Origin: an uncultured Planctomycetia bacterium
GTDB lineage: Bacteria > Omnitrophota > Gorgyraeia > Pluralincolimonadales > Pluralincolimonadaceae
DNA: 64,000 bases
Assembly (NCBI GenBank): GCA_964650515.1
Contig: CAZYUB010000001.1
Span: 1,726 to 65,725 of the forward strand
Direction: 5' to 3'
The notes under the pieces: model-generated
The model's input: the letters and a program-made list of their open reading frames with translations, nothing else
Databases searched by the model: none
What the model was told of the DNA's origin: nothing
Shown here: in pieces, positions 3,623 to 21,046 of the stretch
Layout of the letters: the number at the start of each line of letters is the position of its first letter
How positions within the stretch are numbered: position 1 is the stretch's first letter
Made by a program: the position numbers and the translations under genes

Positions 3623-3627
3623 GATTA

Positions 3628-4067: not shown

Positions 4068-4068
4068 T

Positions 4069-4100: not shown

Positions 4101-4112
4101 ATATTTAGCGCA

Positions 4113-4739: not shown

Positions 4740-4751
4740 CTCTCTTCTCCT

Positions 4752-5282
4752 TTAGTTTCCTTTTTCTATTGTCACGTCAAAATCGTCAAAACAGGCCTCG
4801 CCTGTTGAACCGGCTATGCCTCTTGCGTATCCGAGCACCCTTGCCTCGATCGCCCCGGCAGGCGCTTTTCCGTTGACTTCCAGCTTCTTCCAGGGTATGG
4901 CGCCTTTCACATGCTCGCTCTCTTTATGCCCCGAACTCAAAGGGCCTGCGCTGCCCCAGAACTCAAGGCGCACAAAGGCCTCGGCACCGTTAGACAGCGA
5001 CTTGGAATCCGGGCTCATCACCCACGCGCTGGCTTTGACTACCTCCCCGGGGCTGACCGGTATCTGCTGCCCATAGCAACCCTGCCCTGCACCTTCGATC
5101 TGCCTGCAAGCCGCCTTCTCCCCGCTGTATTTATACTCGGTTGTTATGATCCCGTTGGTCTCCTGGTCATTCCAGTTGTACCAGCTCTCCTCGTCGGATT
5201 CAAAACCGGGATTGATAACGGTATTGGCATAGCAAACGGAACATATCGACATAGTAATGACCGCCAGGAAAATCTTCTTCAC
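4752..5282 (-). CDS. Secreted CBM4_9-like protein without PEP-CTERM tail
   Basis: GTG start with GGGAGGTG RBS; signal peptide; NPGFESDEESWYNW motif; ends FDDFDVTIEKGN with no PEP anchor. Its stop is 12 nt upstream of the next paralog, indicating an operon. Confidence 0.7.
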   Translation of the reverse strand: MKKIFLAVITMSICSVCYANTVINPGFESDEESWYNWNDQETNGIITTEYKYSGEKAACRQIEGAGQGCYGQQIPVSPGEVVKASAWVMSPDSKSLSNGAEAFVRLEFWGSAGPLSSGHKESEHVKGAIPWKKLEVNGKAPAGAIEARVLGYARGIAGSTGEACFDDFDVTIEKGN

Positions 5283-5320
5283 TTGTTCACCTCCCTCCCT
5301 CTCCCATAAATAAGTTTATC

Positions 5321-6469
5321 TTAACTCAAATGTTTTACTTGTAAAATATACCATCCGTTGCCCATCGCCTCGTCGTCCTTCCTGAGCCATTCCCTGCAAT
5401 CCTGTATCTTCGCCTTGACGAGCCCCGCGACTATAATGTCTTTTGCGCTATATGCCCTGCCTGCGATCTCGTAACAGTTAAGCGCGACCTCCAGGTTCCT
5501 GCGGTCCCCGCTGACGAGCGGAACGCTTAAGCTCCTGACCTTGGACTTATATTCGTCGCCCATGTAAAAACAGATGCCGTAATACGACTTCCTGTCGTCA
5601 GCATCCTCGATACTTTTGATGAAGAGCAGTATCGCGTCCCTTTCGAGGTTACTATAAGGCACGAGGAAACCGGCTTTCTTCATCTGCTGGGACCTGGCCC
5701 GGTATTCGTTTATCCTCTTCTCAGCCGACAGACGTGTCTGCGGGCTTTGGGCGAAACGCGACGCCAGGTCGTAGCAGAGCGGAGCGATGCGGAAATAACC
5801 GAATTCGTCGTCCTCGAACCTTCCTATCTGCGCCCTTGCGGCATAGCAGTCCCCGAGATCTATATATCTTCTCGCGCAGGCCTCTTTCTCTTCGGCCGTC
5901 CCGAGCCCCGCTATTATCCCCGCGATAAGCTCGGAATCCTTTTTATTCGCGGGTTTTACTATCCCGCCGTTCGCGAATTCCTTTTTCATCTCGGCAAGGC
6001 CCATGGACGGGACGGAATTATCGCCATGGTCCATCTTTATTATCTTCTCCGCCCTCCTCTTTACCGTGTCTATGTACGCCATTTGGCTGGCCGCCAACTT
6101 TCCGTACGAAGGGTCTATGTCGATAGCCATCGAGAATTCCGCATCGGCGTGGTCGATCATGCTGTTCTCGAGGCAAAATATCCCAAGCTTATAATGGTCC
6201 TGGGCGCTGTTCGGGGATATCTCCTTCACCTTCCCGGCGTATACCTCCTCCGGGCCCGGCGCGGACTCGTCCTCCTTCCTCACGATCGAGGCGACGAGGC
6301 CCTTCTTTATCTTCTCCGTCGCCCCCGAAGCGCTCCTGAACTTCACGGCCGTATCCGTCTCATCCAGGACTTCTCCCTGCATTATCCCGCCGCTCCTCAA
6401 CAGGACCGTATCGGCATATGAGGGGCTTGATAAGGACAATATGACGAACACGATGATGTGCCTGTTCAT
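5321..6469 (-). CDS. Secreted hypothetical protein, 382 aa
   Basis: Signal peptide (…SSPSYA/DT). No family recognised. Translationally coupled to the GspK-like gene (1-nt overlap at 6469). Confidence 0.5.
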   Translation of the reverse strand: MNRHIIVFVILSLSSPSYADTVLLRSGGIMQGEVLDETDTAVKFRSASGATEKIKKGLVASIVRKEDESAPGPEEVYAGKVKEISPNSAQDHYKLGIFCLENSMIDHADAEFSMAIDIDPSYGKLAASQMAYIDTVKRRAEKIIKMDHGDNSVPSMGLAEMKKEFANGGIVKPANKKDSELIAGIIAGLGTAEEKEACARRYIDLGDCYAARAQIGRFEDDEFGYFRIAPLCYDLASRFAQSPQTRLSAEKRINEYRARSQQMKKAGFLVPYSNLERDAILLFIKSIEDADDRKSYYGICFYMGDEYKSKVRSLSVPLVSGDRRNLEVALNCYEIAGRAYSAKDIIVAGLVKAKIQDCREWLRKDDEAMGNGWYILQVKHLS

Positions 6470-8718
6470 CAGATATCCCCTTCCCTGTAATAGGATATAC
6501 GCACGTCGGGCAGATACGTTATCGTCACATCCTCAAGGGCGATCGTCTCGCTCAGGTACGGCTCGGTCCCGAGGCCGGAAGACGGTGTATCAAGAGTCGT
6601 AAAGTTCGCCCTGAACTGTATGCTCGGCGATGCCGGCGAAATGACCGCGCTTCCCGGAAGGATACCGGGAGACGGCAGGGTCCATGAGGCGCCTCCGTCA
6701 ACGCTTGTCTGGAAATACACGATCTCCGAAGCCGGATTCGCTCCCTGGCTGAGCGTCACGGTAGCCCCGATCGTCCCCCACCTGACATCCCCTTCCGGGC
6801 TCACGAACGGTTTTGATTCGAAATAACCTCCGTCCTGCGGGATGACCCTTATGCCGTCGGCCCAGCACATCGGCGTAGGCGTCATCATAGCGCCGTGCGC
6901 CTGCCAACCGACCTGCCCCGATGTATGGTTGCTCGTATAAGTATTATGGATATACCTCTGCAGCTCGGGCGGCCCGCCCTGCCTATAAGCGTAAAAATAG
7001 TGGTCGGTATCGGATAAGGTGACCGTTATCGAGGTGTTCGTGACATAATATCCGTTGCTGAGCCATCCGGTCATAAGGTTGCCCGGCCCGACCTGCGTCT
7101 GCATCTCCGCCCATGTCGTGTCGGCGGGAGGGTTGCCGTATTCCTGCTTCATCCTTACCGTATCGTCGCTGCCGAGCATGTGCCTGCTTAAGTTCATCAT
7201 CACGTCCCACTGCTTGTATTCATAACCCGTCACCTGCATCTTCCTGTATGGGGATATGCCGTCGGATACCGTCGCCCTGAAGGCAAACCTGTCCCAATCC
7301 AGTTCCGGCGGCAATGATGGCTGCTGCCCGAGGACCGTTATCGGGGCGTTGTAAGGCGCGACCATCTGCGGTATGAATACGAGCTCGTTCTTGCCGTCGG
7401 AATTTTCGTCCTTTATCGTGTTAGAGTCCGTCCGGGGGAACCAGAAATACGAAAGCCTGTTGCTCATCGACGCTTCCATCCAGCGCCCTTCGATATAGAA
7501 CATGGACGCGTCCCCGGAAAATGTGTCGTCCATATTGTCCCAGAAACCGTTCTTTACCGAGTCCGGGACGGTCCTGTAATCCGACCCGTGGTTCCAGCTG
7601 TTCACGGAATTTATCGTCTCGACCGGGCAGGAGTCGAGCGTGTTCGTCTTAAATGCGGCCGGGGCGGTGTCCCCGTCGCTGCCCTGAAAATGCTCTTTTG
7701 CGGTCTGGTTCAATATGCCGTAGATCCTTACGAGCGATACGGCCTTCTTTTTCGCGTTATCGGCAAGTCCTGCCGACTCTATCAGGTACCACCCTCCGGG
7801 ATGGAAGCAGAAGTCGGTCGTATAGCCCGCCGGCTTTACCCGGTTCGGGTTCGCGTTGTCTTTTATCTTCTGCCTGTCGTCGGCGTCCAGCGGAGGGGTA
7901 ACCGGTACGGTATCGATGAATCCCTCGAATTGGCGCCATCCGGTAAAAGGTGACGAGGCCCTGTACGCAAGGATCGCGCCGGCCAATGATTCGGCCTTCT
8001 CCCCGGTAATGACACCGGACAATACGGCCCTTAAGACCTGCGCGCTTGCCGTATTTATGTTAACCGGTGATTTCGGCATATAAGGTTCTCCGCGGACAGA
8101 GTCGTCGCTATTGGCGTCCACATAACCTACAACGGTTATATAATCTTTTATCGCGTCGAATTTTGTCCTGTCGATGGATGAATACACCATTATCTCTTCC
8201 GCGGTAATATATCCCGCGGCCGGGCGGTTGTCGGCTATCGACTGCCCGTCGCTCTCGGAAAGCGGCGATCCGACGGCCACGGCCAGGTTGCCCAGTATAT
8301 CCCTGATCCTCGCGTTGGGGTCGTTTATATTTATGCGGCCCGCGGAATCCGATATCCTGACCGCGAATGACGCCGGGACCCTTTCTCCGGACAGTATGCC
8401 GCTGGCCCCGTTTCCGATGACGCCGTCATATGCATCCAGTGAAGGATTGGCCGCGCCGGGATAAGCCCATTCGTCCAAAGGCATTGCATTGAAATCCGCG
8501 CCGGCGATCTCCCTCATGCGCGCTATTGCAAGCGCTATGCCGGCTTGCGCGGCATATATAGCTTTGGTATTGTCCCGGAAATTAGAGGCAAACTTGTATT
8601 CAGACACCGATAACATCGCAAATGACGTCGCTATAGCCGCCAACAGGGCCAACACGCAGACCGAAACGAGCAAGGCTGCACCGCGTTTCATCCCTTTTCT
8701 CACCAGGCCCATTTTCAT
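6469..8718 (-). CDS. Giant GspK/PilX-like minor pseudopilin (749 aa) with a large unknown C-terminal extension
   Basis: N-terminus KRGAALLVSVCVLALLAAIATSF…AAQAGIALA resembles the GspK hydrophobic segment and following helix. The internal PVNINTASAQVLRAVLSGV is the GspK helix-hairpin-helix NINTA motif. About 400 further residues have no recognisable family. Confidence 0.55.
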   Translation of the reverse strand: MKMGLVRKGMKRGAALLVSVCVLALLAAIATSFAMLSVSEYKFASNFRDNTKAIYAAQAGIALAIARMREIAGADFNAMPLDEWAYPGAANPSLDAYDGVIGNGASGILSGERVPASFAVRISDSAGRININDPNARIRDILGNLAVAVGSPLSESDGQSIADNRPAAGYITAEEIMVYSSIDRTKFDAIKDYITVVGYVDANSDDSVRGEPYMPKSPVNINTASAQVLRAVLSGVITGEKAESLAGAILAYRASSPFTGWRQFEGFIDTVPVTPPLDADDRQKIKDNANPNRVKPAGYTTDFCFHPGGWYLIESAGLADNAKKKAVSLVRIYGILNQTAKEHFQGSDGDTAPAAFKTNTLDSCPVETINSVNSWNHGSDYRTVPDSVKNGFWDNMDDTFSGDASMFYIEGRWMEASMSNRLSYFWFPRTDSNTIKDENSDGKNELVFIPQMVAPYNAPITVLGQQPSLPPELDWDRFAFRATVSDGISPYRKMQVTGYEYKQWDVMMNLSRHMLGSDDTVRMKQEYGNPPADTTWAEMQTQVGPGNLMTGWLSNGYYVTNTSITVTLSDTDHYFYAYRQGGPPELQRYIHNTYTSNHTSGQVGWQAHGAMMTPTPMCWADGIRVIPQDGGYFESKPFVSPEGDVRWGTIGATVTLSQGANPASEIVYFQTSVDGGASWTLPSPGILPGSAVISPASPSIQFRANFTTLDTPSSGLGTEPYLSETIALEDVTITYLPDVRISYYREGDI

Positions 8719-8761
8719 CGGATAAATAACTTTCGTTATTCTAAATTGTTTTATCTTTAAG

Positions 8762-8795
8762 GCAAAAACTGGGCTGCCCTAAAAAACGGGCAGCC
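8762..8795 (-). terminator. Intrinsic terminator of gene 8808..10508
   Basis: Hairpin gggctgccc…gggcagcc followed on the minus strand by AGTTTTTGCC. Confidence 0.65.
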
Positions 8796-8807
8796 GTTAT
8801 CCTCTTA

Positions 8808-10508
8808 TTACGGGGCTTTTTCTAATGTAAGCGGATTAAACTTGTTCTTGGCGAATATGTACCACGAGGCCACGGACACCGTCCCCATATCCGGCCTGCT
8901 CCAGTTATAACCGCCTTCCCTGTTTGCCGTATAAGGTATCGTACGGCCCTTCGCCCCCTTGATATTCCTGTCGACGAGGAAGGCGTCCATCTGGTTGGCG
9001 TAGAAATACCCCCTCTCCCTGTCGCCTTCGGTAATATACGCGCACGCTATATGGCCGGTGCCGTCGAGCCATATATTGTTTACGTTTATATCGGCATGGT
9101 CGAAGAAGCCCATGACTTCCTTTCCGTTCACGTTCAGCGTCTTGCGGTACCTGAGGTCATATTCCGGGATATTCAGCAGGGCCGCCGATCCCCTGCCGTA
9201 TGCGAGGACCCTCCAGGTATAGTTATCCAGCGGAAGCGTGTTGCCTTTCAGCACCGAGTCGAGCCATACGCGTATCTTATCCGCATAGGCGTCCTCCTTG
9301 CAAAGTTTCAACGCGGCATAGCAGTCGATGTTGCCTTCGGGATGCCCGCCGTCCTCGTGGAGCTTCTTGTCCCCGCTCCTCCATCCGTGCTGTATATAAC
9401 CGCCCTTCCCTCCCGGATCGTCCTTATACCATGATATCAGCAGGTCTTTCAGCATCCCCGTGATATCCCTGTATCTCTCCGCCCCGTATTCCTTCTCATA
9501 ATATTTATACGCGATAAGCAGCCATGCCATGTCGCCCATCCAGCGGTCCGCCTTGCCGGGGTTATGGTATGCAGAGAGGTTCCCCTCGTTCCTGAGGTTG
9601 ACGTACTGGAAGAAACCTCTTGCCTCGCCCTTATAAAAGAAGTTCTGGTATGACGGGCACCTGTTCTTTACGACCGTGGACTCCGCGAAGAAATCGAGTA
9701 TACGTTCGGCTCTTTCTTTTTCTCCCTTCACGATGAACGCCATTGCCACAAGGGCGTTGTTGAAAGTATGGGCCTGGTTGTCTTCGGCCGTGGGCAGAAG
9801 TTGTTTTTCCGGAGAAAAATTATCCTGGCACAATTTGAGCCATTCCAATACGAGCGGGTCCTCGGGTATAAGCTCCGCGGCCCTTCTCTGTTTGAAACCT
9901 ATGCCTTTAAGCTCCCTGTCCGGGTCGAGCACCGGGCCCACGACCGAGAATGAGGCCGGCAGCCCCGGCTTGTCCAACCCTATCTCGTCCAGGTCCACCG
10001 TGCCTTTTCCTTTTCCGGAGAAAGCGATCTCGAGGTTGGCGAGTTTATCGAACTTATCATCCCCGCCCCACCCGTATTCAAGGTTATTCCTGTATACCAC
10101 GACCTGCGTCCAATCCGTGTATTTGCCCCTCAAAGGGAATTTCCTGAAGAATACGGAACCGTCCGCGTCGACCAGCTTGATCTCCATGTCCGAAGACGAA
10201 TCGGACTTGATCAGGAACGTCAAAGGGACATCCTCCGGCATCTTCTCCGTCATCTTCCTGCGCATAAGCACCCAGCCGTAATCGCCCCTGAGCTCATATA
10301 CCGCCCGGATACCGTCGTCCGGCTTCTCCGGTATGGGGGATATCTCTATCGTGCTCTTACCGTCCATATCGGCCTTCCATTGGCTAATGTCGTCCCAGCT
10401 CGCCTTAATGGGGGGTTGGGGCTGCTGCCCGGGTTTTTGCGCTTGCTCATACTCCTTGCAGCCGGATATTAACAGCAGGAACGCCGCCAGGCAGACAACC
10501 TTTTTCAT
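8808..10508 (-). CDS. Lipoprotein: N-terminal CBM/CIA30-like beta-sandwich plus C-terminal (alpha/alpha)6 six-hairpin glycosidase-like domain
   Basis: Lipobox LLISGC. C-terminal half (…NTFNNALVAMAFIV…WYIFAKNKFNP) is homologous to the N-terminal half of the 14086..15843 protein, and its N-terminal beta-rich domain to the other's C-terminus. Fold assignment is by pattern only. Confidence 0.45.
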   Translation of the reverse strand: MKKVVCLAAFLLLISGCKEYEQAQKPGQQPQPPIKASWDDISQWKADMDGKSTIEISPIPEKPDDGIRAVYELRGDYGWVLMRRKMTEKMPEDVPLTFLIKSDSSSDMEIKLVDADGSVFFRKFPLRGKYTDWTQVVVYRNNLEYGWGGDDKFDKLANLEIAFSGKGKGTVDLDEIGLDKPGLPASFSVVGPVLDPDRELKGIGFKQRRAAELIPEDPLVLEWLKLCQDNFSPEKQLLPTAEDNQAHTFNNALVAMAFIVKGEKERAERILDFFAESTVVKNRCPSYQNFFYKGEARGFFQYVNLRNEGNLSAYHNPGKADRWMGDMAWLLIAYKYYEKEYGAERYRDITGMLKDLLISWYKDDPGGKGGYIQHGWRSGDKKLHEDGGHPEGNIDCYAALKLCKEDAYADKIRVWLDSVLKGNTLPLDNYTWRVLAYGRGSAALLNIPEYDLRYRKTLNVNGKEVMGFFDHADINVNNIWLDGTGHIACAYITEGDRERGYFYANQMDAFLVDRNIKGAKGRTIPYTANREGGYNWSRPDMGTVSVASWYIFAKNKFNPLTLEKAP

Positions 10509-10620
10509 CGATATCTCCTTCAGTATATGAGTTTCTTATTACTAAATTGTTTTACCAGTTAATAAAGATACCACCGGAATGCGCTTTTGTCAAATAAATA
10601 TTATGCGGAGGGAATAGGCA

Positions 10621-10667
10621 GGAAATAGAAAAAGAGCTTCCAATTCCTGGAGCGGAAGGTTGGAAGC
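10621..10667 (-). terminator. Intrinsic terminator after gene 10703..11335
   Basis: Hairpin gcttccaa…ttggaagc followed by a T-rich tract on the minus strand. Confidence 0.5.
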
Positions 10668-10702
10668 CCTTTTTCGTCCCCCTACTTCTTAAGCTATACT
10701 GC

Positions 10703-11335
10703 TTACTTCTTTCTCGAAAAACCTACCAAACCGATCAGGCCTGAGCCGAGAAGCAGCAGGCTGGCCGGTTCCGGAACGGCTGCGACGTCAAAGTTGAAGT
10801 TGTCGAAATCGCTCTGGCCGGGTACCTCATAAAGCGGAGCAGCACCGTAGGTGCCGAACATGACCCTTGCCTTAACAGCGTCGGTCGGCGCAACCACAAC
10901 ACCGGTATCTCCGAGGTTATACTGATCCCTTGTCAGGGCCTTCATGTCAATCGTCCTTGTGAGCGCGGTTGAGCCGTTGGCTCTGAGGAATTTCACTCCG
11001 ATATAAGATCCCCAAGCGCCGGCTACCGAACCTGAGGGGACCCACGCATAACCCGTAAGACGATACGATTCTCCGCCCGTGATGTTGACTTCCTGCTTCA
11101 AACCGCCATCGTTGTAGTTATGAAGGTTCCAGGCGCCGTTCTGAGGATTATCCTGCACGCCTGCCTGATTGCCGGCATTCCAGCCATCGGGAGCTTCGGC
11201 AGACCAGCCATACGTATGGCTTCCGTCAACCGAGATCTCAAAATCACCGTTGACCAACAGGTTCGCGCTGGCTACGCCAGGCACCAACAGCACTACCAAG
11301 CTTACCAATGCTACTAGTTTACCCATCTTTTTCAC
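10703..11335 (-). CDS. Secreted CBM4_9-like protein with PEP-CTERM sorting signal
   Basis: GTG start, signal peptide, NLLVNGDFE motif, C-terminal AAVPEPASLLLLGSGLIGLVGFSRKK. Confidence 0.8.
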   Translation of the reverse strand: MKKMGKLVALVSLVVLLVPGVASANLLVNGDFEISVDGSHTYGWSAEAPDGWNAGNQAGVQDNPQNGAWNLHNYNDGGLKQEVNITGGESYRLTGYAWVPSGSVAGAWGSYIGVKFLRANGSTALTRTIDMKALTRDQYNLGDTGVVVAPTDAVKARVMFGTYGAAPLYEVPGQSDFDNFNFDVAAVPEPASLLLLGSGLIGLVGFSRKK

Positions 11336-11349
11336 TTCACCCCTTTCTT

Positions 11350-11980
11350 TTACTTTTTCCTCTTGTTAAACAACCCTACTCCCAACAATCCACTTCCCAG
11401 CAATAACATACTGGCGGGTTCCGGAACGGGGGCGGATTCAACGATGAGGTCATCAAAGATTCCCCCTTCCGTCACCACTGCCAGTACCAACATTGTTGAC
11501 TTCCCAAACCATGGTCGCCTTGACTATGTCGGATCCGTAGCTTGACGGGGTCACCAAAGCTGTCATATCATTCCAAACATTGTCCGCAAGCTCATTGCCC
11601 GTAAGGTTTCCCGTGGTCCACGTTCCCACTATGGAATCATCCGAACGCTTGAATTCCACCCTTAATGAAGCGAATGTGCCGTTCCTGAGGGATTCATTCC
11701 CGGCAGCATCATCAAACAAATAACCGCCGACTCTATACACCGAACCGGGATCCGTTATCGTGACATCCTGCCAGCCCGATGTCGCCCACCAACCTGCGGC
11801 GGAATAGCTGCCTGAATTTCCCCATGCATTTATAGTCGCATTTGTGCCGTTCCATTGGCTCCATCCGGTAAAATCCCCGCTTTCGAACCCGGAGTTGGCC
11901 AGAAGATTGGCGTGCGCCATTGAATATGAGGATAGCATCATTGCGAGAGCGATTACTAATGCGGCTTTTCTCTTCATCAT
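11350..11980 (-). pseudogene. PEP-CTERM CBM4_9-like paralog interrupted by a +1 frameshift in a G5 run (~11460)
   Basis: ORF 11453..11980 ends …GDGRGNL*. The next frame continues GIFDDLIVESAPVPEPASMLLLGSGLLGVGLFNKRKK*, the expected PEP-CTERM tail, ending at 11350. The intact paralog 12261..12932 reads GDGRGIFDDLMV… through the same point. Confidence 0.6.
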
Positions 11981-11995
11981 TCCTCAACCCCCTTT

Positions 11996-12012
11996 ATCGA
12001 AACGTGTTTATT
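11996..12012 (-). promoter_or_regulatory. ACACGTGT-type box (ATCGAAACGTGTTTATT) just upstream of the RBS of gene 11980
   Basis: Degenerate copy of the TTCGACACGTGTTTAA box, 17 nt before the start codon. Confidence 0.4.
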
Positions 12013-12084
12013 AATCGGACATAATAAACTGTTTTTGTCATTCGGTTGATTTTGTATTTCAGAAGTTGCTGCCGTAGACCATTA

Positions 12085-12139
12085 TTCGACACGTGTTTAA
12101 GAGTGCCTATAATATACATTAAGAAAGTAAAAGTGTCAA
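12085..12139 (-). promoter_or_regulatory. Sigma70 promoter (TTGACA-N17-TATATT) with a TTAAACACGTGTCGAA operator box at +4..+20
   Basis: Minus-strand -35 is plus 12134-12139 and -10 is plus 12111-12116. The imperfect palindrome around CACGTG at 12085..12100 lies immediately downstream. It carries the same UP-like upstream element as the other island promoters. Confidence 0.5.
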
Positions 12140-12185
12140 GAGAATTAAATTGCTTATTTATAGTTCTTTATTGCTCTATATGAGA

Positions 12186-12220
12186 ACAAAAAATGCGGGA
12201 GGGCGTTCCTGCCCTCCCGC
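12186..12220 (-). terminator. Intrinsic terminator of gene 12261..12932
   Basis: Hairpin gcgggagggc…gccctcccgc followed on the minus strand by ATTTTTTGTT. Confidence 0.7.
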
Positions 12221-12226
12221 ACGCTT

Positions 12227-12255
12227 CTCCCTCGGGTTATTGGGGGTTGAGGAAG
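12227..12255 (-). ncRNA. Conserved 3' UTR stem-loop (CTTCCTC-N15-GAGGGAG), copy 3
   Basis: Minus-strand CUUCCUCaacccccaauaacccGAGGGAG occupies the same position (stop, stem-loop, terminator) as copies 1 and 2. Confidence 0.5.
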
Positions 12256-12260
12256 AATAT

Positions 12261-12887
12261 CTACTTCCTGGAGCTCTTCTTTCCTATTCCGAAAATACCG
12301 ATCAGGCCTGAGCCGAGAAGCAATAAGCTTGCCGGTTCCGGTATCGGCTGTGTATCTACCATCAGGTCGTCGAATATACCGCGGCCGTCTCCAGAACCGC
12401 TGTTATTGACTTCCCATACCAGAGTTACATGGTCGATACCGACACCATAGCTCGACGGCGTAACAATGGCTGTCTTGTCGTTCCATACGTTGTCTGTCAG
12501 GTTGGCGCCGGTCAAATTGCCGGTCGTCCAGGTCCCAACGATGTTGTTGGCGGCATTCTTGAATTCTGCCCTTATCGAGGCATACCCGCCGTTCCTGAGC
12601 GATTCGTTTCCCGCGACGTCATCATAGATGTAGCCGCCGATCCTCACCGACGCATTTGCGTCCGTGATAGCTGCGTCCTGCCATGCTGATGTCGCCCACC
12701 AACCTGCTGCGGAATAATTGCCCGTACGGCCCCAGCTGTTCATTGCCGTATTGGCGCTGTTCCACTGTCCCCAGTTACTGAAACTCCCCGTCTCAAATCC
12801 AGCGTTGCTGAGAAGATTAGCGGCATCCGCGTGAACCGGAATTACGAGAGCTGCTGCAAACAGAAGCACTGCAAACAACTTTCCCAT
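12261..12887 (-). CDS. Secreted CBM4_9-like protein with PEP-CTERM sorting signal
   Basis: Start placed at the internal ATG with AAAGGAGGA RBS (the track ORF extends to 12932). Signal peptide, NLLSNAGFETGSFSNW motif, C-terminal PIPEPASLLLLGSGLIGIFGIGKKSSRK. Confidence 0.8.
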   Translation of the reverse strand: MGKLFAVLLFAAALVIPVHADAANLLSNAGFETGSFSNWGQWNSANTAMNSWGRTGNYSAAGWWATSAWQDAAITDANASVRIGGYIYDDVAGNESLRNGGYASIRAEFKNAANNIVGTWTTGNLTGANLTDNVWNDKTAIVTPSSYGVGIDHVTLVWEVNNSGSGDGRGIFDDLMVDTQPIPEPASLLLLGSGLIGIFGIGKKSSRK

Positions 12888-12908
12888 AACTTTTCCTCCT
12901 TTCTTCAA

Positions 12909-12923
12909 TTCGACACGTGTTGA
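12909..12923 (-). promoter_or_regulatory. ACACGTGTCGAA box, RBS-proximal copy
   Basis: Minus-strand AACACGTGTCGAA about 25 nt upstream of the start codon of gene 12261..12887. Confidence 0.45.
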
Positions 12924-12977
12924 GTTATTCATTACAATAATCCCTTGCCGGAACTAATAGGGATTTATTTAGAACGA

Positions 12978-13032
12978 TTCGACACGTGTTTAATTGTTAA
13001 TTTATTATGCATTAAGTAAGTGTTCATGTCAA
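12978..13032 (-). promoter_or_regulatory. Sigma70 promoter (TTGACA-N18-ATAATA) with a TTAAACACGTGTCGAA box at +3..+18
   Basis: The -35 is plus 13027-13032, the -10 is plus 13003-13008 and the box is 12978..12993. A hairpin TCCCT…AGGGA at 12941-12970 lies between the two box copies. Confidence 0.5.
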
Positions 13033-13063
13033 GATTAATATATTGCTTTTTTTTAGGACTAAT

Positions 13064-14086
13064 TCAGGAGGGCTTGACGGACTCTCTGCGAATGTATTCC
13101 GGAGTGAAAATTACCGTATCGTTCTCTATCTTTTTTCCCGATACTATATCCAATAACATCTGCGCGGCGGTCTTGCCAATCTCGACCAGCGGAAGCCTCA
13201 TGGAACTCAATGTCGGAGATCCCGGCGGAAAAGGGAACATGTCGTTGAAACCTATTACCGAAATATGCTCGGGGACCGAAAGGCCGTCGTCACGTATCCT
13301 TCTTATCGCGGCAAGCGCCATGACGTCGTCCGAAGCCACTATGCCGGTGATCCTCGGCTCCTGCTTCAACAGGATACCGGTAGCTTCGTATGCTTTTTCG
13401 TAGATAAACAGCCCTTCGGCCACAAGGTTTTCGTCGAATCCCGCGCCCGCTTCGGATAACGCCTTTTTGTATCCCGCAAGCCTGTCCTGGTCGAGCTGGA
13501 ACCTTAACGCGCCGCTGAGGAACGCTATCCTTTTATGGCCGGTGTCGAGCAATTCCTTCGTCGCCCTGAAAAGGCCTTCCTTGTTATCTATCAGGACCTT
13601 GGGTATCTTCGCCTCCTTTATGTACCTGTTCACGAGCACTACCGGGAACTTCTTTTCGAAAAGCGTCATCACATCCTTCTCGAGGGCTTCTTCGACGAGT
13701 ATGCACATGCCGTCGACCCTTTTTTCTTCGAAGGCCTTCATGTAATACGGGGAAAGCGGTTCTTCTTTCGGCTTTATCGCACGGGTCAACTGGAAATAAT
13801 AACCGTTCTTCTCCAGCACTCCGGCAATGCCGCTGACTACGTGGCTGAAATACGAATAATATATGTCCTCGAAATCTTTTACCACTACGGCGATGTTGAA
13901 TGTCTTCCTGCTGACAAGGCTGCGGGCTATCACGTTAGGCGTGAAATCAAGGTCCGCGACCACCTTGCTGACACGCTCCTGCGTCTTCTTGCCCACCTTC
14001 TGGAGGTCCTTACCGTTTATGACCCTCGAGACGGTGCTTATGGATACTTTCGCTTTTTTGGCTATGTCTTTATATGTATATGCCAT
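13064..14086 (-). CDS. LacI-family transcriptional regulator
   Basis: N-terminal HTH (YKDIAKKAKVSISTVSRVINGK) and periplasmic-binding-fold effector domain. Its ATG overlaps the TAA of the upstream glycosidase-like gene. Confidence 0.85.
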   Translation of the reverse strand: MAYTYKDIAKKAKVSISTVSRVINGKDLQKVGKKTQERVSKVVADLDFTPNVIARSLVSRKTFNIAVVVKDFEDIYYSYFSHVVSGIAGVLEKNGYYFQLTRAIKPKEEPLSPYYMKAFEEKRVDGMCILVEEALEKDVMTLFEKKFPVVLVNRYIKEAKIPKVLIDNKEGLFRATKELLDTGHKRIAFLSGALRFQLDQDRLAGYKKALSEAGAGFDENLVAEGLFIYEKAYEATGILLKQEPRITGIVASDDVMALAAIRRIRDDGLSVPEHISVIGFNDMFPFPPGSPTLSSMRLPLVEIGKTAAQMLLDIVSGKKIENDTVIFTPEYIRRESVKPS

Positions 14087-15843
14087 TAATTAAGGTATAT
14101 CCTGTGCAGGTTGACCGCGGAATTCCCGCTGCAATCTTCCACCCTCACCTCAAACGTGATCTTCCTCACGCCTTCCCTGTCGAATAAGCCGTTCCCGTAA
14201 TTCTGCAATTCCGGGCTTCGCCTGAACCCGTCCTTCAGGTCCAGGGAAAAATGTTCGAGCTCCCCGCCATAAAGGTATATCGGTATGCTTTCAAAGGGCT
14301 CGCCTTCCCTGTCATACGCTTTAACCTTCATGGACATTTTCTGCGCGCTGCTGGAAAGCTCCAGGTTCAATTTACCGTATTTGCCCCAGTCCTGCGGACA
14401 GAGAAAAGGACGGCTGACCGTACCCCAACAGGCCTTCGCCGACTCCTCCGGCTCGATGGTTATCTTCATCGTATTTACGAGTTTGCCCGTTGATGACGCC
14501 GCAGGCGCCAATTTCCTTGATATCCTGCAGTGCCCCGCCGAGACCATCTCCGACGGATATGCCGTCTCGAACTTTATGCTGCCGTATGTGAAATCGTCTA
14601 TTACGGGGACGAACTGGAAAGCGGGCTTATAATCGATGCTGTCTACTATCTTATTCGCTCGCTCCTCATCCTGCCCCATCGAAAAGGGGTTGAAGTCCTC
14701 CTTCGCGAATATATACCAGCAGGTGCTCGATATGCAGAGCGGCCGGTCCTGCATTACCCAGCTGCCGTAGGCGGTCGTACCCTCATTCGTCGCGTACGGC
14801 AATGCCGAAGCGTTCTTATGGACCGAACTGGCCGTAAGCGCTTTGTCCAGCTCCGACAGGAAATGCGCGCTCTCCTCCTTCCTGCCGGCCCTGTCGAATG
14901 CGAGGGCCATCTGGGCCGTGCCTTCCAGCCATATGGAATCCTTGTCCGGATAATGTGACTTTTCGTAGGTGGAACCGAAATCGAAACCCTCTATCTCGAC
15001 CCCGTTGACCTTATACATCTTCTTCGTCAAACTCTTGTCTATCGCGAAATCGAGCGTGGGCCCGTAAGCGCTCCCGAGTGCCAAGACCGCCCAGCTCGAC
15101 TGGTCGGTCGCGAAATTAGGGTTGTCCCTGCCCATGTTGAACCTGTTCTGCTCTTTGTTCCAGGCGGCGTTCTCCATCCAGAATTTTATCTCTTTCGCGA
15201 CGCCGAGGCACCGCATATCGCCGGTAAGGACGCCGAGGTCCCTGAACGCGGCATAAGAGTCGAGGTTATGTTCGACCGATATCCATGTCATCGGCTCCCC
15301 GTTGCCGTAATACCCGCCGATAACGCCACCCTCTATCGACTGAAGCGACATCAGCCATTCCACGAGCGTCTCCGCGAGATCCGAATACCTCGTATCTTTC
15401 GAGACATACGTATAATGGTTGATCGCTATGAGCATCCACGCGTTCGGGCCCGCGGCCCAGGTTTCTCCCCAGCGCCCGTCCTTGCGGTAGGCGTCGCTGA
15501 ACCCTATGAATTTTCCGTATTTCTTTATCTCCTTGCGGTAAGTGCCGTCAAAGAAATCGAGCACCTGCCTTGCCTTTTTCAGGTCACCGCGGGAAGTAAA
15601 GGCGATAACGGCAAGGGCCTGGTCGTAGGTAAAACAATCCGTCCCGCCTTCATAGCTCGGAAGGAGCCCCTCAGTAAAGAAGATCAAGCGACGGTTCGAT
15701 TCCTGCTGCGCGACAAGCCACCTGTATGCCTTGTCCACGTTATCATCCCGAGCGGGGCCGCCGGGGTCCTGCCCCCATCCTGAGGGCCCGGCGCAGAGCG
15801 CGCACAGCAGCACCGACGCCAAAAATGCGCGTATCTTATTCAT
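14086..15843 (-). CDS. Secreted (alpha/alpha)6 six-hairpin glycosidase-like protein with a C-terminal CBM/CIA30-like beta-sandwich
   Basis: Signal peptide from the internal ATG (the track ORF extends to 15897). DQALAVIAFTSRGDLKKARQVLDFF… and CWYIFAKEDFNPF are shared with the 8808..10508 protein, with the domain order swapped. Confidence 0.45.
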   Translation of the reverse strand: MNKIRAFLASVLLCALCAGPSGWGQDPGGPARDDNVDKAYRWLVAQQESNRRLIFFTEGLLPSYEGGTDCFTYDQALAVIAFTSRGDLKKARQVLDFFDGTYRKEIKKYGKFIGFSDAYRKDGRWGETWAAGPNAWMLIAINHYTYVSKDTRYSDLAETLVEWLMSLQSIEGGVIGGYYGNGEPMTWISVEHNLDSYAAFRDLGVLTGDMRCLGVAKEIKFWMENAAWNKEQNRFNMGRDNPNFATDQSSWAVLALGSAYGPTLDFAIDKSLTKKMYKVNGVEIEGFDFGSTYEKSHYPDKDSIWLEGTAQMALAFDRAGRKEESAHFLSELDKALTASSVHKNASALPYATNEGTTAYGSWVMQDRPLCISSTCWYIFAKEDFNPFSMGQDEERANKIVDSIDYKPAFQFVPVIDDFTYGSIKFETAYPSEMVSAGHCRISRKLAPAASSTGKLVNTMKITIEPEESAKACWGTVSRPFLCPQDWGKYGKLNLELSSSAQKMSMKVKAYDREGEPFESIPIYLYGGELEHFSLDLKDGFRRSPELQNYGNGLFDREGVRKITFEVRVEDCSGNSAVNLHRIYLN

Positions 15844-16495
15844 TAGACAATATGAAATCATCCAGGTATACGGTCGCTCCCGGGCCGTTGCCCACATCCG
15901 CTCCGAAGGCTATGCCGATATTGTCGAGCGACTTTACGTCTATGCCTGATTTGCGCAGCTCGGCTACGGATATCGTTATCTTCTTCCATTCCTTCGTGGC
16001 CGATTCAACCGATATCTTTGCCTGCGGCATATAGCTCGGCGCATGGCTGTCCCTGAGGACTATTTCCATGTTCTCTCCGCCGTTCTCACCCTTTACCCAG
16101 AATTCTATGCTCTTGAAACCGGACACATCCTTGCTCTTGACCTTCTTCGGGACGGGGACAGCATCGGTGACCTGGCCCATGTCTATAGAAAAACTACCCC
16201 ACGTCTCCGACTTCTTGCTTCCGAGGGCGTTGACGAGGCGGAACGACTGCTTGCCGCTATGGACGTTCTTCATGTCATACCCGGGTACGTTCGGGGAATA
16301 GTACCAGCTGAACGGCGTGTTCTTGTCTTCCCAGTTGGGTTCCAGAGACCCGTATACCCCGACCTCGCCCCCGAGATTGTTCGGATGGCCTTCAAAATCC
16401 GCTATGACGGTAATGCTTTCTTCGGAAAACGATTGCCCGGGAACAAAAAATAACACGGCGGCTATTGCCGCTATAAGAAATATCTGTCCTTTCAT
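15836..16495 (-). CDS. Secreted CBM11/CIA30-like beta-sandwich protein
   Basis: Signal peptide. Residues around EFWVKGENGGENMEIVLRD and ATVYLDDFIL suggest a carbohydrate-binding-like beta-sandwich fold. No PEP-CTERM tail. Confidence 0.45.
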   Translation of the reverse strand: MKGQIFLIAAIAAVLFFVPGQSFSEESITVIADFEGHPNNLGGEVGVYGSLEPNWEDKNTPFSWYYSPNVPGYDMKNVHSGKQSFRLVNALGSKKSETWGSFSIDMGQVTDAVPVPKKVKSKDVSGFKSIEFWVKGENGGENMEIVLRDSHAPSYMPQAKISVESATKEWKKITISVAELRKSGIDVKSLDNIGIAFGADVGNGPGATVYLDDFILSNE

Positions 16496-16515
16496 GCCAG
16501 CCTCCTTTTGCCAGT

Positions 16516-16576
16516 ATTATAACTCATTGACCGTTGCGTGTAAACAACGGGGGCCCGCAATCATCCGGGCCCCCGC
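16516..16576 (-). promoter_or_regulatory. Terminator hairpin (16549..16575) overlapping a sigma70 promoter TTTACA-N17-TATAAT for the 16495 operon
   Basis: Hairpin gggggcccg…cgggccccc. On the minus strand, TTTACA (plus 16539-16544), 17-nt spacer, TATAAT (plus 16516-16521), then the AAAAGGAGG RBS. Confidence 0.5.
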
Positions 16577-16587
16577 TATGTTAACTA

Positions 16588-17241
16588 TCAGCTCTTCTTC
16601 CTTCTCCCAAGACCGATAAGCCCAACCAGCCCTGTGCCGAGCAAGAGCATGCTTGCCGGTTCGGGGACGGGCGCAAACGACATATCATCCACCCACAACG
16701 TGCTGTTAGGTGAATACGCACCGCTTGTCGTAAGTGCGACAACGGCGGATACCTTAGCCGTCCCTGCGGGGGCGGCCGCGGCCGCGACAGAAATAGGGTG
16801 CCAGGTGTCTGCTGTTGCCGAGTTGTCGAATAAGGCACTCTCATCTACGCGGATAACGTTGCCAAGCGAGTTATACCATTTTACCTGCAGCTTGGCCGAG
16901 CTGCCGTCCTTAAGCGCATCAGCGGAATTCCACAGGAAATTACCATTCAGTAAGTAGGGGGCACTGAAATCGATCCCTGTAAAGTCCTCGTTGAAATACG
17001 CATAATCGGTGCCGCTTCCGCCCCAGATGACCACCTTCGCCGCCTTGGCGCCGCTCATCGCAACCGAAGAATCATAGAATGAGTCGCCGTTAGCGCCGCC
17101 GCTCCATGTCCACGGGCCATCCTTTATAACAATAGCCGATCCGCCGTTCTCGAAACCCGGATCGCTCAGGAGGTTGGCAGATGCCTGGGATGAAAAAACA
17201 CCGAATACCGCTATCATCAGTATTACCCTGAATATCTTCAT
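16588..17241 (-). CDS. Secreted CBM4_9-like protein with PEP-CTERM sorting signal
   Basis: Start at the internal ATG with GGAGGTG RBS. Signal peptide, NLLSDPGFENGG motif, C-terminal APVPEPASMLLLGTGLVGLIGLGRRKKS. Confidence 0.8.
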   Translation of the reverse strand: MKIFRVILMIAVFGVFSSQASANLLSDPGFENGGSAIVIKDGPWTWSGGANGDSFYDSSVAMSGAKAAKVVIWGGSGTDYAYFNEDFTGIDFSAPYLLNGNFLWNSADALKDGSSAKLQVKWYNSLGNVIRVDESALFDNSATADTWHPISVAAAAAPAGTAKVSAVVALTTSGAYSPNSTLWVDDMSFAPVPEPASMLLLGTGLVGLIGLGRRKKS

Positions 17242-17380
17242 TATTTCACCTCCTTTCATTATTAAGTTAAACGTTTTCCTTTCAAACCTTAAAAAAAGGA
17301 AAACGATTTCCTTTACTTGGAAAGTCTATCATATCCCAGAATAAAGTCAAGATTATTAAATTGTTATTTTGTAGTAATAA

Positions 17381-18031
17381 TTAGAGGTAATCCGGAAGGA
17401 CCTTTACCGCTTCGCGTATGAACTTCCTGCATCTTTCGAGCGCGGCTGTCGTGTCGTTATCCGTTATGGCTGTCCATACCCTTATGGCCGACCCGCCGCT
17501 CTTGCCGCCCTTGAGCTGGTTGATGACGAAATACAACTGCTGCCTGTAGAAATTCTCCGTCATTACATCTCCGGCGGTGTACCAGTCAAGCATCAGCACC
17601 TTGTTCTTCGATATCTGGTAGATCGACTCGTTGGCCGACATTGCCTTCCCCCCTCCAAGGTCGATATCCGCCTTTCCCTGCGTGAGCATCTCGGTGCGGC
17701 CGCTCCCGAGATAGCAATATTCCGGAGGATGGAAACTCTGCCTCTTCTGGTCCGAATATACCACCTGCATCGACACCCTTTCGTTACCAGGCCCGAGGTA
17801 GGTGCGTATCAACACTTTGTCCGTCCCGAGGACCTCGTATACCTGTTTCAGGTATTCTTTGTCCTTGAACTCGACGTTCGTCCCCTTCCACCCGGAGACG
17901 TTCATCGGGAAGGACATCAGCCTTACTTCGCGCGCCGGTGCCCTTTTGATCGACGACATGAAAAATACCGCGGCCGCGCACACGGTGAGCATGGATACGG
18001 CAATTATCGTATTTAGGTCTTTTTTGTCCAC
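17381..18031 (-). CDS. epsI: EpsI-family exosortase-associated protein
   Basis: ~215-aa protein with a single N-terminal TM, overlapping and directly downstream of the exosortase gene. Matches the EpsI (methanolan-locus) family by architecture. Confidence 0.6.
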   Translation of the reverse strand: MDKKDLNTIIAVSMLTVCAAAVFFMSSIKRAPAREVRLMSFPMNVSGWKGTNVEFKDKEYLKQVYEVLGTDKVLIRTYLGPGNERVSMQVVYSDQKRQSFHPPEYCYLGSGRTEMLTQGKADIDLGGGKAMSANESIYQISKNKVLMLDWYTAGDVMTENFYRQQLYFVINQLKGGKSGGSAIRVWTAITDNDTTAALERCRKFIREAVKVLPDYL

Positions 18032-20544: not shown

Positions 20545-21046
20545 TCTCGAACGACTTCTTTATTACCAATATTTTCTTCTTGAGGTCGGCTTCCTGCTTT
20601 TCGTCGTCAACGAACGATACGCCGATATCATATTTTTCCGGTTCCTGCTCCGCCGGGGACTTGACCCAGCTGACCTTTACCAGCGTCTTTACCGGCTCTA
20701 TATCGTTGCCGGGCATTATATCCAGTGTTATATGCATCTCAGGAACCAGGTCCTTATTGAACTCTTCGCCGTTTCCGTTATCTTCCTTAAGCCTGCATTT
20801 CGAATTATGGACCCATCCGAGGCAATTCGAGCAGCTGTCGCAATGCCATGAGCGCGGCCACTCAAGCAAGGCACCCCCCTCACTTAAGTTCTTTGCTTTC
20901 AATGGGATATCGCCGGAAATATCCGTCTTCTTTTGAGGATCTACAAGCTTCCCTTTAATAGCAACATTTATTTCGACACGTTTAAACTTTCTGCGTTCCA
21001 AGTTTTTCTCCTTGTACACCAAATTTAGAAGTTCAGTATAACACAA
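20537..21046 (-). CDS. PilZ-domain c-di-GMP-binding protein
   Basis: N-terminal RRKFKRV (RxxxR) and D-x-S-x-x-G-like LSEGGALL motifs characteristic of PilZ. Confidence 0.6.
   Translation of the reverse strand: MCYTELLNLVYKEKNLERRKFKRVEINVAIKGKLVDPQKKTDISGDIPLKAKNLSEGGALLEWPRSWHCDSCSNCLGWVHNSKCRLKEDNGNGEEFNKDLVPEMHITLDIMPGNDIEPVKTLVKVSWVKSPAEQEPEKYDIGVSFVDDEKQEADLKKKILVIKKSFEND

Follow-up and report, generated by a model that had tools for sequence, protein, structure and literature searches.

Two adjacent promoters in this Omnitrophota contig each carry the same short box twice, once just past the promoter and once near the start codon of a gene for a PEP-CTERM surface protein. The locus raises the question of which protein would read these boxes and what it would do there. 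The initial annotation had ascribed them to a second repressor controlling the genes that it named 12261, 11980, and 10703, with an AraC-family protein or a regulator not recognized in the window as candidates. The window is the whole stretch of DNA analyzed here (64,000 nucleotides).

Duplicated boxes at two PEP-CTERM promoters

The exact 12-mer ACACGTGTCGAA was present in the 64-kb window in three copies, all on the minus strand (12085..12096, 12909..12920, and 12978..12989), and a copy with two mismatches, ACACGTTTCGAT, was located at 11996..12007. About 0.008 exact copies would be expected in 128 kb (both strands). When up to two mismatches to the 12-mer were allowed, there were 11 matches, part of this count being the palindrome counted on both strands, compared to 3.05 ± 1.81 in shuffled sequences, and 0 of 100 shuffles reached 11. 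The four sites scored between 23 and 28 bits with the PWM, and the next independent match in the window scored 12 bits; the scan of the 64-kb window found nothing comparable away from the two promoters. Exact matches, shuffles, and PWM scores thus confirmed that the box is duplicated at two adjacent promoters, as the initial annotation had described. The features of the two transcription units are as follows.

13004..13032, minus strand: promoter P1 (TTGACA at 13032..13027, 17 nt, CATAAT at 13009..13004; 11/12 consensus positions)
12977..12993, minus strand: P1 box 1, TTAAACACGTGTCGAAT (PWM, 27.8 bits), with its central CpG at about +12 to +13 from the inferred transcription start site
12939..12966, minus strand: leader hairpin AAATCCCT...AGGGATT followed by a U-rich run, between P1 boxes 1 and 2
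12908..12924, minus strand: P1 box 2, CTCAACACGTGTCGAAT (PWM, 23.4 bits), 6 nt 5' of the AAGGAGG ribosome-binding site
12261..12887, minus strand: target gene 1, encoding a secreted CBM-like domain with a PEP-CTERM anchor (208 aa; Pfam PEP-CTERM, E = 1.5e-5)
12193..12222, minus strand: intrinsic terminator of gene 12261 (12-bp stem with 9 GC pairs, T-run), separating the two transcription units
12111..12139, minus strand: promoter P2 (TTGACA at 12139..12134, 17 nt, TATATT at 12116..12111; 11/12 consensus positions)
12084..12100, minus strand: P2 box 1, TTAAACACGTGTCGAAT (sequence search and PWM)
12040..12069, minus strand: a third, partly conserved island, GCAACTTCTGAAATACAAAATC..., in the P2 leader, holding a box-like GAAAyAC
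11995..12011, minus strand: P2 box 2, ATAAACACGTTTCGATA (PWM, 24.3 bits), abutting the AAAGGGGG ribosome-binding site
11340..11980, minus strand: target gene 2, a PEP-CTERM paralogue whose frame is disrupted here by a single additional G within the G-run at 11458..11473
10703..11335, minus strand: target gene 3, a PEP-CTERM paralogue (Pfam PEP-CTERM, E = 2e-7)

Box 1 starts 11 nt past the -10 hexamer and spans about +5..+21, so the downstream placement given in the initial annotation held, but its span of +3..+20 did not. The second copy does lie near the start codon, at distances of 21 nt (P1) and 14 to 17 nt (P2) from the end of the box; the initial annotation gave 17 to 25 nt. Measured from the centers in the window, the start codon is 98 to 112 nt from box 1 and 23 to 29 nt from box 2. 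The order of promoter, operator 1, operator 2, and ribosome-binding site is shared with the LacI-type sites at 3530..3586, in agreement with the two-operator layout proposed earlier.

P1 drives gene 12261..12887, whose paralogues match Pfam CBM_4_9. The start of this gene was placed at the ATG at 12887, which is preceded by AAGGAGG and agrees with the MGKL start of the homologues. The ATG at 12932 given by the ORF finder, which would put box 2 within the coding sequence, was rejected. Intact orthologues of target gene 2 are present in two related contigs (L079 and L083). The gap of a few bases between gene 11980 and gene 10703..11335 showed neither a promoter nor a terminator, and for this reason the coregulation of gene 3 with gene 2 is plausible and the two are probably cotranscribed. 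The claim that a repressor controls all three genes is partly supported: the boxes are operator-like and gene 10703 is plausibly included, and it is repression itself that we infer.

Conservation among related cassettes

An alignment across relatives, which the initial annotation had called for, was made with 19 promoter cassettes from related Omnitrophota contigs; for the orthologue contigs P0008 and P0009 (ENA), gene order alone was used. The box core was invariant in all 19 cassettes while the leaders diverged, and CACGT was found in 25 of 25 unique sites. Within the P2-type leaders (n = 9, alignment A2), invariant columns made up 13 of 14 core columns in box 1, 13 of 15 in box 2, and 19 of 74 in the rest of the leader, with columns A73, C75 to C78, A82-A83, and C86-A87 of the P2-leader island among the invariant ones. 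P1 box 2 was kept in L079, L082, L093, and L098, and the leader hairpin was present in all P1-type cassettes and appeared in the predicted fold. The -35 and -10 hexamers of P1 were invariant in orthologous cassettes, as was promoter P2 in the nine aligned P2-type cassettes. In 15 of 19 cassettes, box 1 had the same position as in P1, at 47 nt counted from where the -35 hexamer begins, and its central CpG was 45 to 47 nt from that point, at about +12, in 18 of 19 (50 nt in L006). Several of the contigs with cassettes come from JGI sample Ga0265297. CBM-like PEP-CTERM paralogues followed the cassettes in every case (19/19), and in a total of 780 kb from LacI-family loci, sites above 18 bits occurred nowhere else. 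These comparative data confirm that the box is under selection.

P1 and P2 share box 1 at 17 of 17 positions, while their coding sequences show only 62% identity and no alignment is possible for the leaders between the boxes. Because the promoters are tandem paralogues, the identity of the P1 and P2 boxes is not independent evidence; its persistence beside such divergent genes and leaders is the stronger test. The clear paralogy of the two promoters and their genes could also mean that the repeats are functionless and were left over from tandem duplication of a promoter-gene unit. This explanation is hardly credible, as the boxes remained identical despite the divergence of the genes and leaders and are invariant in 19 cassettes, including those of contigs whose LacI identity is as low as 76%. 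These contigs are not near-identical strains, and the conserved footprint contradicts a mere remnant.

The left/right asymmetry of the box (TAAAC on the left and TCGAA on the right) was kept in 24 of 25 unique sites. Such conserved asymmetry is unusual for the operator of a homodimer and could be explained by shared descent of the sites. The arrangement of the boxes varied. The cassette type of L090 and L094 has one box only, the boxes of L006 are 14 bp apart with one inverted, those of L096 are 35 bp apart, and the other spacings are 68 to 71 and 87 to 89 bp. Since these spacings share no common helical phase, lac-type looping, which calls for phased spacing and a tetramerizing regulator, is unsupported. 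The LacI protein encoded next to P1 has, judging by its 340 aa alone, the length of a member without the tetramerization tail.

Candidate binders and other explanations

The window encodes a LacI-family regulator directly beside the two promoters, which the initial annotation had overlooked, and also contains a third type of box, here named O_C.

13064..14086, minus strand: gene for a LacI-family regulator (Pfam LacI, Peripla_BP_1, and Peripla_BP_3; recognition helix I-S-TVSR)
17264..17314, minus strand: two GGAAAnCGnTTTCC-type boxes (O_C) in the promoter of PEP-CTERM gene 16588..17259

The LacI gene ends 31 bp before the -35 hexamer of P1, and the adjacent protein could be a local repressor binding the ACACGTGT boxes of the two promoters just downstream. 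It was favored at first for its adjacency and the CpG palindrome. In contigs with a LacI of at least 76% identity to that of the window (L005, L006, L008, L009, L010, L082, and L093), the cassette lies directly downstream wherever sequence is available, and among 77 LacI-family loci, sites above 18 bits occurred only at these. The box has the form of a LacI operator, and AA at NT-5/-4 of its left half-site is accepted by the I-S class. Orthologues of at least 75% identity also differ from the rest near the HTH, with K/R13 and Q29 compared to G13 and H29 in more distant ones.

However, the distribution of O_C, the recognition code, and cassettes without LacI led us to downgrade this assignment. 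In the LacI recognition code, I15 and S16 specify AA or CA at NT-5/-4, and R20 specifies G at NT-6 (PMC2978694). The prediction for the adjacent protein (I15/S16/TVSR) is G-A-A at -6 to -4, and O_C fits it. The box instead reads A-A-A in the left half and C-G-A in the right half, so that both half-sites are without the R20-linked G at NT-6 and the right half has GA at NT-5/-4. The O_C box GGAAAACGTTTTCC was found in the window at 17264..17314 and 16424..16437, at operon heads in L012, L014 to L017, and the window, and, in L006, L011, and L003, at 26 to 29 nt 5' of the start codon of LacI. The HTH and hinge are invariant across the orthologue family of 50 to 100% identity. The whole orthologue family, including that of L006 (76%), thus has GGAAAACGTTTTCC in autoregulatory or operon-head positions with an exact fit to the code, and the promoter serving the LacI gene carries a box different from ACACGTGT. 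O_C accompanies the LacI family over 50 to 100% identity, whereas the ACACGTGT box was found only in loci with a LacI at least 76% identical to that of the window. One LacI of this family was detected per genome (peptide-pattern scan of incomplete MAGs). Intact box cassettes directly follow EpsI, with no LacI between, on four contigs (L080, L088, L089, and L098), and the adjacency could be inherited synteny in one genus-level clade. The recognition code is statistical, and by this comparison the adjacent LacI is probably not the binder; its role as the local repressor of P1 and P2 seems unlikely. A regulator gene beside a site is not automatically its binder. The O_C boxes at 17264..17314, in turn, are probable operators of the LacI of the window. 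The O_C boxes (window; L003, L006, L011, L012, L017, and L102) resemble the box in target class, genomic island, and architecture (TTGACA, 17 nt, -10, about 11 nt, operator, leader, second operator, and ribosome-binding site) but differ in the half-site, GGAAAAC compared to TAAACAC/TTCGACAC of the box.

The AraC/PocR-family protein of the exosortase locus (21078..21908) is the sole other transcription factor in the window and belongs to a conserved AraC-PilZ-TPR-exosortase-EpsI core preceding the cargo island. AraC-family proteins usually bind asymmetric sites about 17 bp long, and binding of this protein as a two-HTH monomer would explain the asymmetry of the box. Sites of AraC/XylS regulators would be expected to be asymmetric or direct repeats at or upstream of the -35 hexamer and to track their regulator. 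In contrast, the CACGTG core is a perfect palindrome, the box lies downstream of the start site rather than upstream of or over the -35 hexamer, and one site in L006 is inverted. AraC orthologues (61 to 73% identity) are without cargo in L101 and L103 and have cargo with another box type in L102; no box was found within 10 kb of the orthologues, and a search of their loci L100 to L103 showed no co-occurrence. The sole box-like sequence near the AraC gene is inside the PilZ gene. This copy codes for the PilZ motif ERRKFKRVE, varies along with the protein sequence in L101, and shows conservation as coding sequence alone; it was rejected as a fifth site and had rightly been discounted in the initial annotation. 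The AraC candidate found no support in these comparisons, and we regard it as very improbable.

The boxes may also act in the mRNA, with a long-range 5' untranslated region stem between box 1 and box 2 controlling stability or access to the ribosome-binding site. Every copy is in a transcribed leader, nearly all in the same orientation, and the minimum-energy fold of the P1 type pairs the boxes around the conserved hairpin (z = -1.85 in the window and -4.77 in L005). However, two copies of any palindrome are bound to pair when a fold is predicted, and the P2-type leaders do not show such a fold (z = +1.0 and +1.6). The compensatory changes of a conserved structured leader were not seen either: all 25 sites have C at position -2, whereas G, T, or A occupies +3, with which it would have to pair. 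The stem also does not suit the single-box cassette of L090 or the closely spaced boxes of L006 and L096. In Rfam, the sole match in 10500..17500 was a chance-level PhotoRC-I at 16743 (17.6 bits compared to a gathering score of 45). An RNA element was rejected on these grounds and appears improbable.

Most likely, neither the adjacent LacI nor AraC binds the box, and the binder would therefore be encoded outside the window. A second repressor accordingly remains the best reading, as the initial annotation had proposed, though its AraC candidate fell away and the neighboring LacI gene had been missed. No other regulator gene was found near the cassettes in contigs L079 to L098, and no transcription factor beyond LacI and AraC was found in the window, where small ORFs were checked only at 40700..42120 and were pilin-like. 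Metagenome-pattern matches in L081, L087, and L092 (ArsR-like genes) and in L099 (an HTH-nucleotidyltransferase gene) were dismissed as chance and unrelated.

Operator form and a possible cargo island

The box, TTAAACAC|GTGTCGAA, is symmetric at 12 of 16 positions and is a 16-bp even palindrome centered on CpG; L005 carries a near-perfect palindrome, TAAACACGTGTTTA. Even palindromes of 16 to 22 bp are the criterion for LacI-family operators, and among LacI-family motifs, 1,251 of 1,303 were even palindromes, 1,173 of them with a central CG (PMC4052901). The box agrees in its length, in its central CG pair, and in its location over the promoter and 5' leader, most such sites being 30 to 140 bp before the start codon. 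This form points to a binder of the LacI family. The lacO1 operator is centered at +11. A CpG-centered even palindrome near +12 is the textbook form of a LacI-family operator, and the description of the box as novel was too strong. A literature search for ACACGTGT operators found nothing relevant. Like lacO1 and the RegPrecise LacI-TF motifs, the box has its primary site at about +12, a second operator nearby, and carbohydrate-related genes under its presumed control. It differs from LacI/GalR operators in that its half-sites, TAAACAC|G and TTCGACAC|G, are without the G at -6 of the dominant TVSR class (PMC2978694), its targets are PEP-CTERM surface proteins rather than catabolic enzymes or transporters, the operator spacing is unphased, and a cognate LacI-family protein was not found in the window.

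On balance, we lean towards the view that the boxes form a genuine pair of operators whose repressor is encoded beyond the window, is probably of LacI type, and is most likely neither the adjacent LacI nor AraC. A dimeric, sequence-specific repressor would bind box 1, centered near +12, and block RNA polymerase. It would also bind box 2, just 5' of the ribosome-binding site, as a second operator that acts as a roadblock or a cooperative site. Together, the boxes would keep the genes for a small family of CBM-like PEP-CTERM surface proteins silent until the repressor was released by a signal, which is probably a carbohydrate. We infer the family of the binder and its effector along with this scheme, and a repressor on a palindromic operator is an ordinary class of mechanism. 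The arrangement suggests that the production of PEP-CTERM surface proteins with carbohydrate-binding folds is not constitutive but is turned on and off by specific signals. Omnitrophota are uncultured, and their gene regulation is almost unknown; with strong consensus promoters, a short box, and clear targets, the cassettes offer a clean testable promoter-operator unit.

Two other CpG-centered palindromes of the same island have the same layout of promoter, operator, operator, and ribosome-binding site, and a LacI-family protein is linked to one of the two. A broader and rather doubtful reading is that a hypervariable cargo island lies between the exosortase genes and tRNA-Val/thrS. In this island, each of the paralogous CBM-like PEP-CTERM proteins would be connected, via an otherwise identical promoter-leader cassette, to one of three or more orthogonal CpG-centered operator types. 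The ACACGTGT type would then be read by a regulator with unusual, intrinsically asymmetric recognition, which could be a non-TVSR protein of LacI type or belong to a family with no previous link to sites of this kind. If true, the wiring of the cargo island would be a modular, signal-specific program of cell-surface switching in Omnitrophota.

Through L086, another metagenome-pattern match, we came upon a clostridial LacI subfamily whose sites resemble TAAACACGTGTTTA. Members of this subfamily (recognition helix E-T-IVSY; L086 and L104) are encoded beside TAAACACGTGTTTA and ATACACACG sites, and the sites at their operon promoters share the TAAACAC|G half-site with the left half of the box. Because a non-TVSR LacI adjoins such sites, the half-site of the box is compatible with the LacI family. 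The clostridial case differs in that it comes from an unrelated phylum (Clostridia), with a sulfatase/ABC-transporter operon, and the link between site and protein was drawn from only two loci; no Omnitrophota relatives of this LacI were found among the best 120 hits. Spo0A is not known outside endospore-forming Firmicutes, nor bHLH factors outside eukaryotes, and nothing at this locus points to either protein. The resemblance of the right half of the box (TGTCGAA) to the Spo0A 0A box and of its core (CACGTG) to the eukaryotic E-box is one of letters alone.

Operator-like boxes at two adjacent PEP-CTERM promoters

The ACACGTGT box occurs twice behind each of two sigma-70 promoters, P1 and P2, on the minus strand, which encodes every gene in this region. 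One copy (box 1) is promoter-proximal and the other (box 2) lies near the ribosome-binding site.

Promoters, boxes and genes of the P1-P2 region
13032..13004, minus: promoter P1; TTGACA, 17 nt, CATAAT; sigma-70 consensus 11/12
12993..12977, minus: box 1 of P1, 17-mer TTAAACACGTGTCGAAT, 11 nt after the -10 hexamer
12924..12908, minus: box 2 of P1, CTCAACACGTGTCGAAT, just 5' of the ribosome-binding site
12261..12887, minus: PEP-CTERM gene driven by P1, 208 aa; true start the ATG at 12887, after AAGGAGG
12222..12193, minus: strong terminator between this gene and P2
12139..12111, minus: promoter P2; TTGACA, 17 nt, TATATT; sigma-70 consensus 11/12
12100..12084, minus: box 1 of P2, 17-mer TTAAACACGTGTCGAAT, identical to the P1 copy, 11 nt after the -10 hexamer
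12011..11995, minus: box 2 of P2, ATAAACACGTTTCGATA, just 5' of the ribosome-binding site
11340..11980, minus: PEP-CTERM paralogue driven by P2
10703..11335, minus: third PEP-CTERM paralogue, downstream of 11340..11980

The exact 12-mer of the box is present in 3 copies against about 0.008 expected, and a position weight matrix scored the four sites at 23-28 bits, with the next independent match in the 64-kb window at 12 bits. Sites, promoters and matrix scan thus bear out the duplicated box described in the initial annotation, with slightly adjusted coordinates. The third paralogue probably shares the P2 transcript. An additional G in a G-run at 11458..11473 (GGGGG; GGGG in the related loci L079 and L083) shifts the reading frame of gene 11340..11980; the gene may be a pseudogene, or the extra base may come from misassembly or slippage.

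Conservation and form of the box

Identity between P1 and P2, which are tandem paralogues, proves little by itself. Yet box 1 matches at 17 of 17 positions, whereas the two coding sequences share only 62% identity and the inter-box leaders are not alignable. The window belongs to a Candidatus Omnitrophota MAG. From related contigs we gathered 19 such cassettes, in part at loci with orthologues of the LacI gene next to P1 (L005, L006, L008, L009 and L010) and in part by searching metagenomes for a promoter-plus-box pattern, where 12 of the 22 matches were true loci. Nine aligned P2-type leaders had invariant columns at 13 of 14 positions in the box 1 core and 13 of 15 in box 2, compared to 19 of 74 in the remaining leader. 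The consensus of 25 unique sites is TAAACACGT(G/T)TCGA(A/T), with CACGT invariant. In 18 of the 19 cassettes, 45-47 nt separate the start of the -35 hexamer from the box 1 central CpG, which puts the CpG at about +12, and a CBM-like/PEP-CTERM family gene follows every cassette. The alignment across relatives proposed in the initial annotation found the box conserved. Taken together, the comparison gives the clear phylogenetic footprint expected of a functional element: the boxes are genuine sites of operator type, under selection.

The box is a 16-bp even palindrome with CpG in its centre. Among LacI-family motifs, 1251 of 1303 are even palindromes, and 1173 of those 1251 have a central CG (Ravcheev et al., PMC4052901). 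With its primary site centred near +12 and a second site downstream, the arrangement follows the logic of lacO1. The same layout, built from other CpG-centred palindromes, recurs at two more PEP-CTERM gene promoters in the window, upholding the earlier comparison with the sites at 3531..3585.

Further operator-like pairs at PEP-CTERM promoters
3530..3586: TGTAAGCGCTTACG and TGTAAGCGTTTACA
17264..17314: AAAGGAAATCGTTTTCCTTT and AAAGGAAAACGTTTAACTT

The box halves are unequal (TAAAC left, TCGAA right), an asymmetry that 24 of the 25 unique sites retain; one site, in locus L006, is inverted. Shared descent may explain this asymmetry, and an intrinsically asymmetric binding mode is also conceivable. 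Spacings between boxes 1 and 2 are 14, 35, 68-71 and 87-89 bp, and cooperative looping is not supported because they have no common helical phase.

Many cassettes also carry a hairpin followed by a U-run between the two operators (window 12939..12966; related contigs L011, about 1345-1375; L012, about 535-565; L017; L102, about 14665-14705). In GGAAAnCG-type cassettes it is GC-rich, with stem covariation (GGGCTTT/AAAGCCC versus GGGCC/GGCCC) followed by GTTTTTAAGG, and resembles an intrinsic terminator or attenuator. An island common to P2-type leaders (window 12040..12069; AACTTCyGrAAyACAA, including a box-like GAAACAC) may be a weak third site.

Candidate regulators

Most likely, the genes are repressed through these boxes by a dimeric regulator, probably of LacI type, whose gene lies elsewhere in the genome; its targets would be a few related carbohydrate-binding-like proteins anchored at the cell surface. 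Such a mechanism is ordinary; this instance of it is new. A role at the RNA level is the weaker reading: pairing of box 1 with box 2 in a leader stem is predicted for P1-type leaders, but only for these. The would-be paired positions lack covariation, one cassette type has a single box, another has boxes 14 bp apart with one inverted, and an Rfam scan gave no match supporting an RNA element.

By position, the obvious candidate for the binder is the product of a LacI-family gene overlooked in the initial annotation.

13064..14086, minus: LacI-family gene (Pfam LacI and periplasmic-binding-protein domains), ending 31 bp before the P1 -35 hexamer

Moreover, across 77 LacI-family loci (780 kb), high-scoring boxes were found only directly downstream of its close orthologues (at least 76% identity). 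However, on three independent grounds, we consider it unlikely that this protein binds the ACACGTGT box. A different palindrome, GGAAAACGTTTTCC, accompanies the regulator family over 50-100% identity. In L006 (76% identity to the window LacI), L011 (60%) and L003/L013 (59%) it follows a consensus promoter and precedes the LacI start codon by 26-29 nt; in L012, L014-L017 and L102 it is found at operon-head promoters, and in the window it heads the run of genes of which LacI is the last. A common operator is expected for the family because its HTH and hinge (VSISTVSRVIN, PNVIARSLV) are essentially invariant. The recognition code also disagrees: Arg at AA-20 of the TVSR class goes with G at operator -6 (Camas et al., PMC2978694) and the pair (I15, S16) with AA or CA at -5/-4 (Camas et al. 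Table S1, PMC2978694). The window LacI is I-S-TVSR, and GGAAAAC|G fits the prediction exactly. In the ACACGTGT box, position -6 is instead A on the left side and C on the right, and the right half, which is strongly conserved, reads GA at -5/-4. Finally, intact ACACGTGT cassettes directly follow the EpsI gene, with no LacI between, in L080, L088, L089 and L098. Family tracking, code and cassettes without the gene thus place the neighbouring LacI at the GGAAAACGTTTTCC boxes, and the second repressor proposed in the initial annotation survives. This third type of operator, written (A)AGGAAAACGTTTTCC(T), accompanies the LacI orthologues from 50 to 100% identity, often 26-29 nt ahead of their start codon, agrees with the published code for I15/S16/TVSR, and is probably what the window LacI binds (window 17264..17314 and 16424..16437; L003 4972; L006 2506; L011 1334/1393/3642; L012 521/580; L017 1228/1288; L102 14644). 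The 3530..3586 boxes, called LacI-type in the initial annotation, have G-T-A at -6 to -4, which goes with Ala at AA-16 in CcpA/GalR-like classes (Camas Table S1, PMC2978694); being unlike the I-S LacI code, they imply a further regulator, not seen in the window.

The initial annotation had offered the AraC-family protein or an unseen regulator; the latter stands and the former falls.

21078..21908: AraC/PocR gene, in a conserved core of glycosyltransferase, AraC, PilZ, one other gene, TPR, exosortase and EpsI

The AraC orthologues in L101, L102 and L103 have no ACACGTGT box within 10 kb, and a palindromic, downstream site is unfit for an AraC-type activator. The weak copy inside PilZ (GTTTAAACGTGTCGAAA, 20971..20987) was rightly discounted: it encodes ERRKFKRVE, the PilZ RxxxR c-di-GMP-binding motif, is conserved only as coding sequence and changes along with the protein in L101. 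No transcription factors besides LacI and AraC were found in the window, the rest of which holds exopolysaccharide and exosortase genes, a GGDEF response regulator, pilin-like genes and the dnaA-dnaN-gyrB origin region.

Clostridial relatives and the surrounding island

Two chance matches of the metagenome pattern contain the perfect palindrome TAAACACGTGTTTA. In L086 (5724..5776) it heads a sulfatase/ABC-transporter operon whose last gene is LacI-family, with recognition helix E-T-IVSY rather than the TVSR class. Two ATACACACG sites lie upstream of a 70% identical relative in Angelakisella (L104, 9900..10000). The half-site TAAACAC|G thus appears compatible with a non-TVSR LacI-family protein. 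The best 120 relatives of the clostridial LacI include no Omnitrophota member, and those with a named source come from Clostridia; the lead supports the family assignment and names no gene. L099 has a 38-bp palindrome (1113..1164) with TAAACACGTGTTTA at its centre, placed after the -10 hexamer and ahead of the start of an HTH-nucleotidyltransferase gene. The gene that follows may be HEPN-like, in which case the two would form a toxin-antitoxin pair; this palindrome is unconnected with the box finding.

The PEP-CTERM, CBM and LacI genes all lie in a variable island (2643..17380) between EpsI (17381..18031) and tRNA-Val (2643..2719)/thrS. After EpsI, L101 and L103 have only tRNA-Val and thrS, with no genes in the island slot, L102 has a GGAAAnCG-type cassette, the window has a 14.5-kb island, and P0125, a contig with an AraC orthologue, has a single 204-aa gene. 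The longest thrS ORF (915..2687, TTG start at 2687) overlaps tRNA-Val, so the true start lies further downstream. Elsewhere, two tandem prepilin-like genes (40762..41172 and 41239..41649) are identical (136 aa), with a third, diverged copy at 41665..42069 and tRNA-Leu and tRNA-Cys adjoining.
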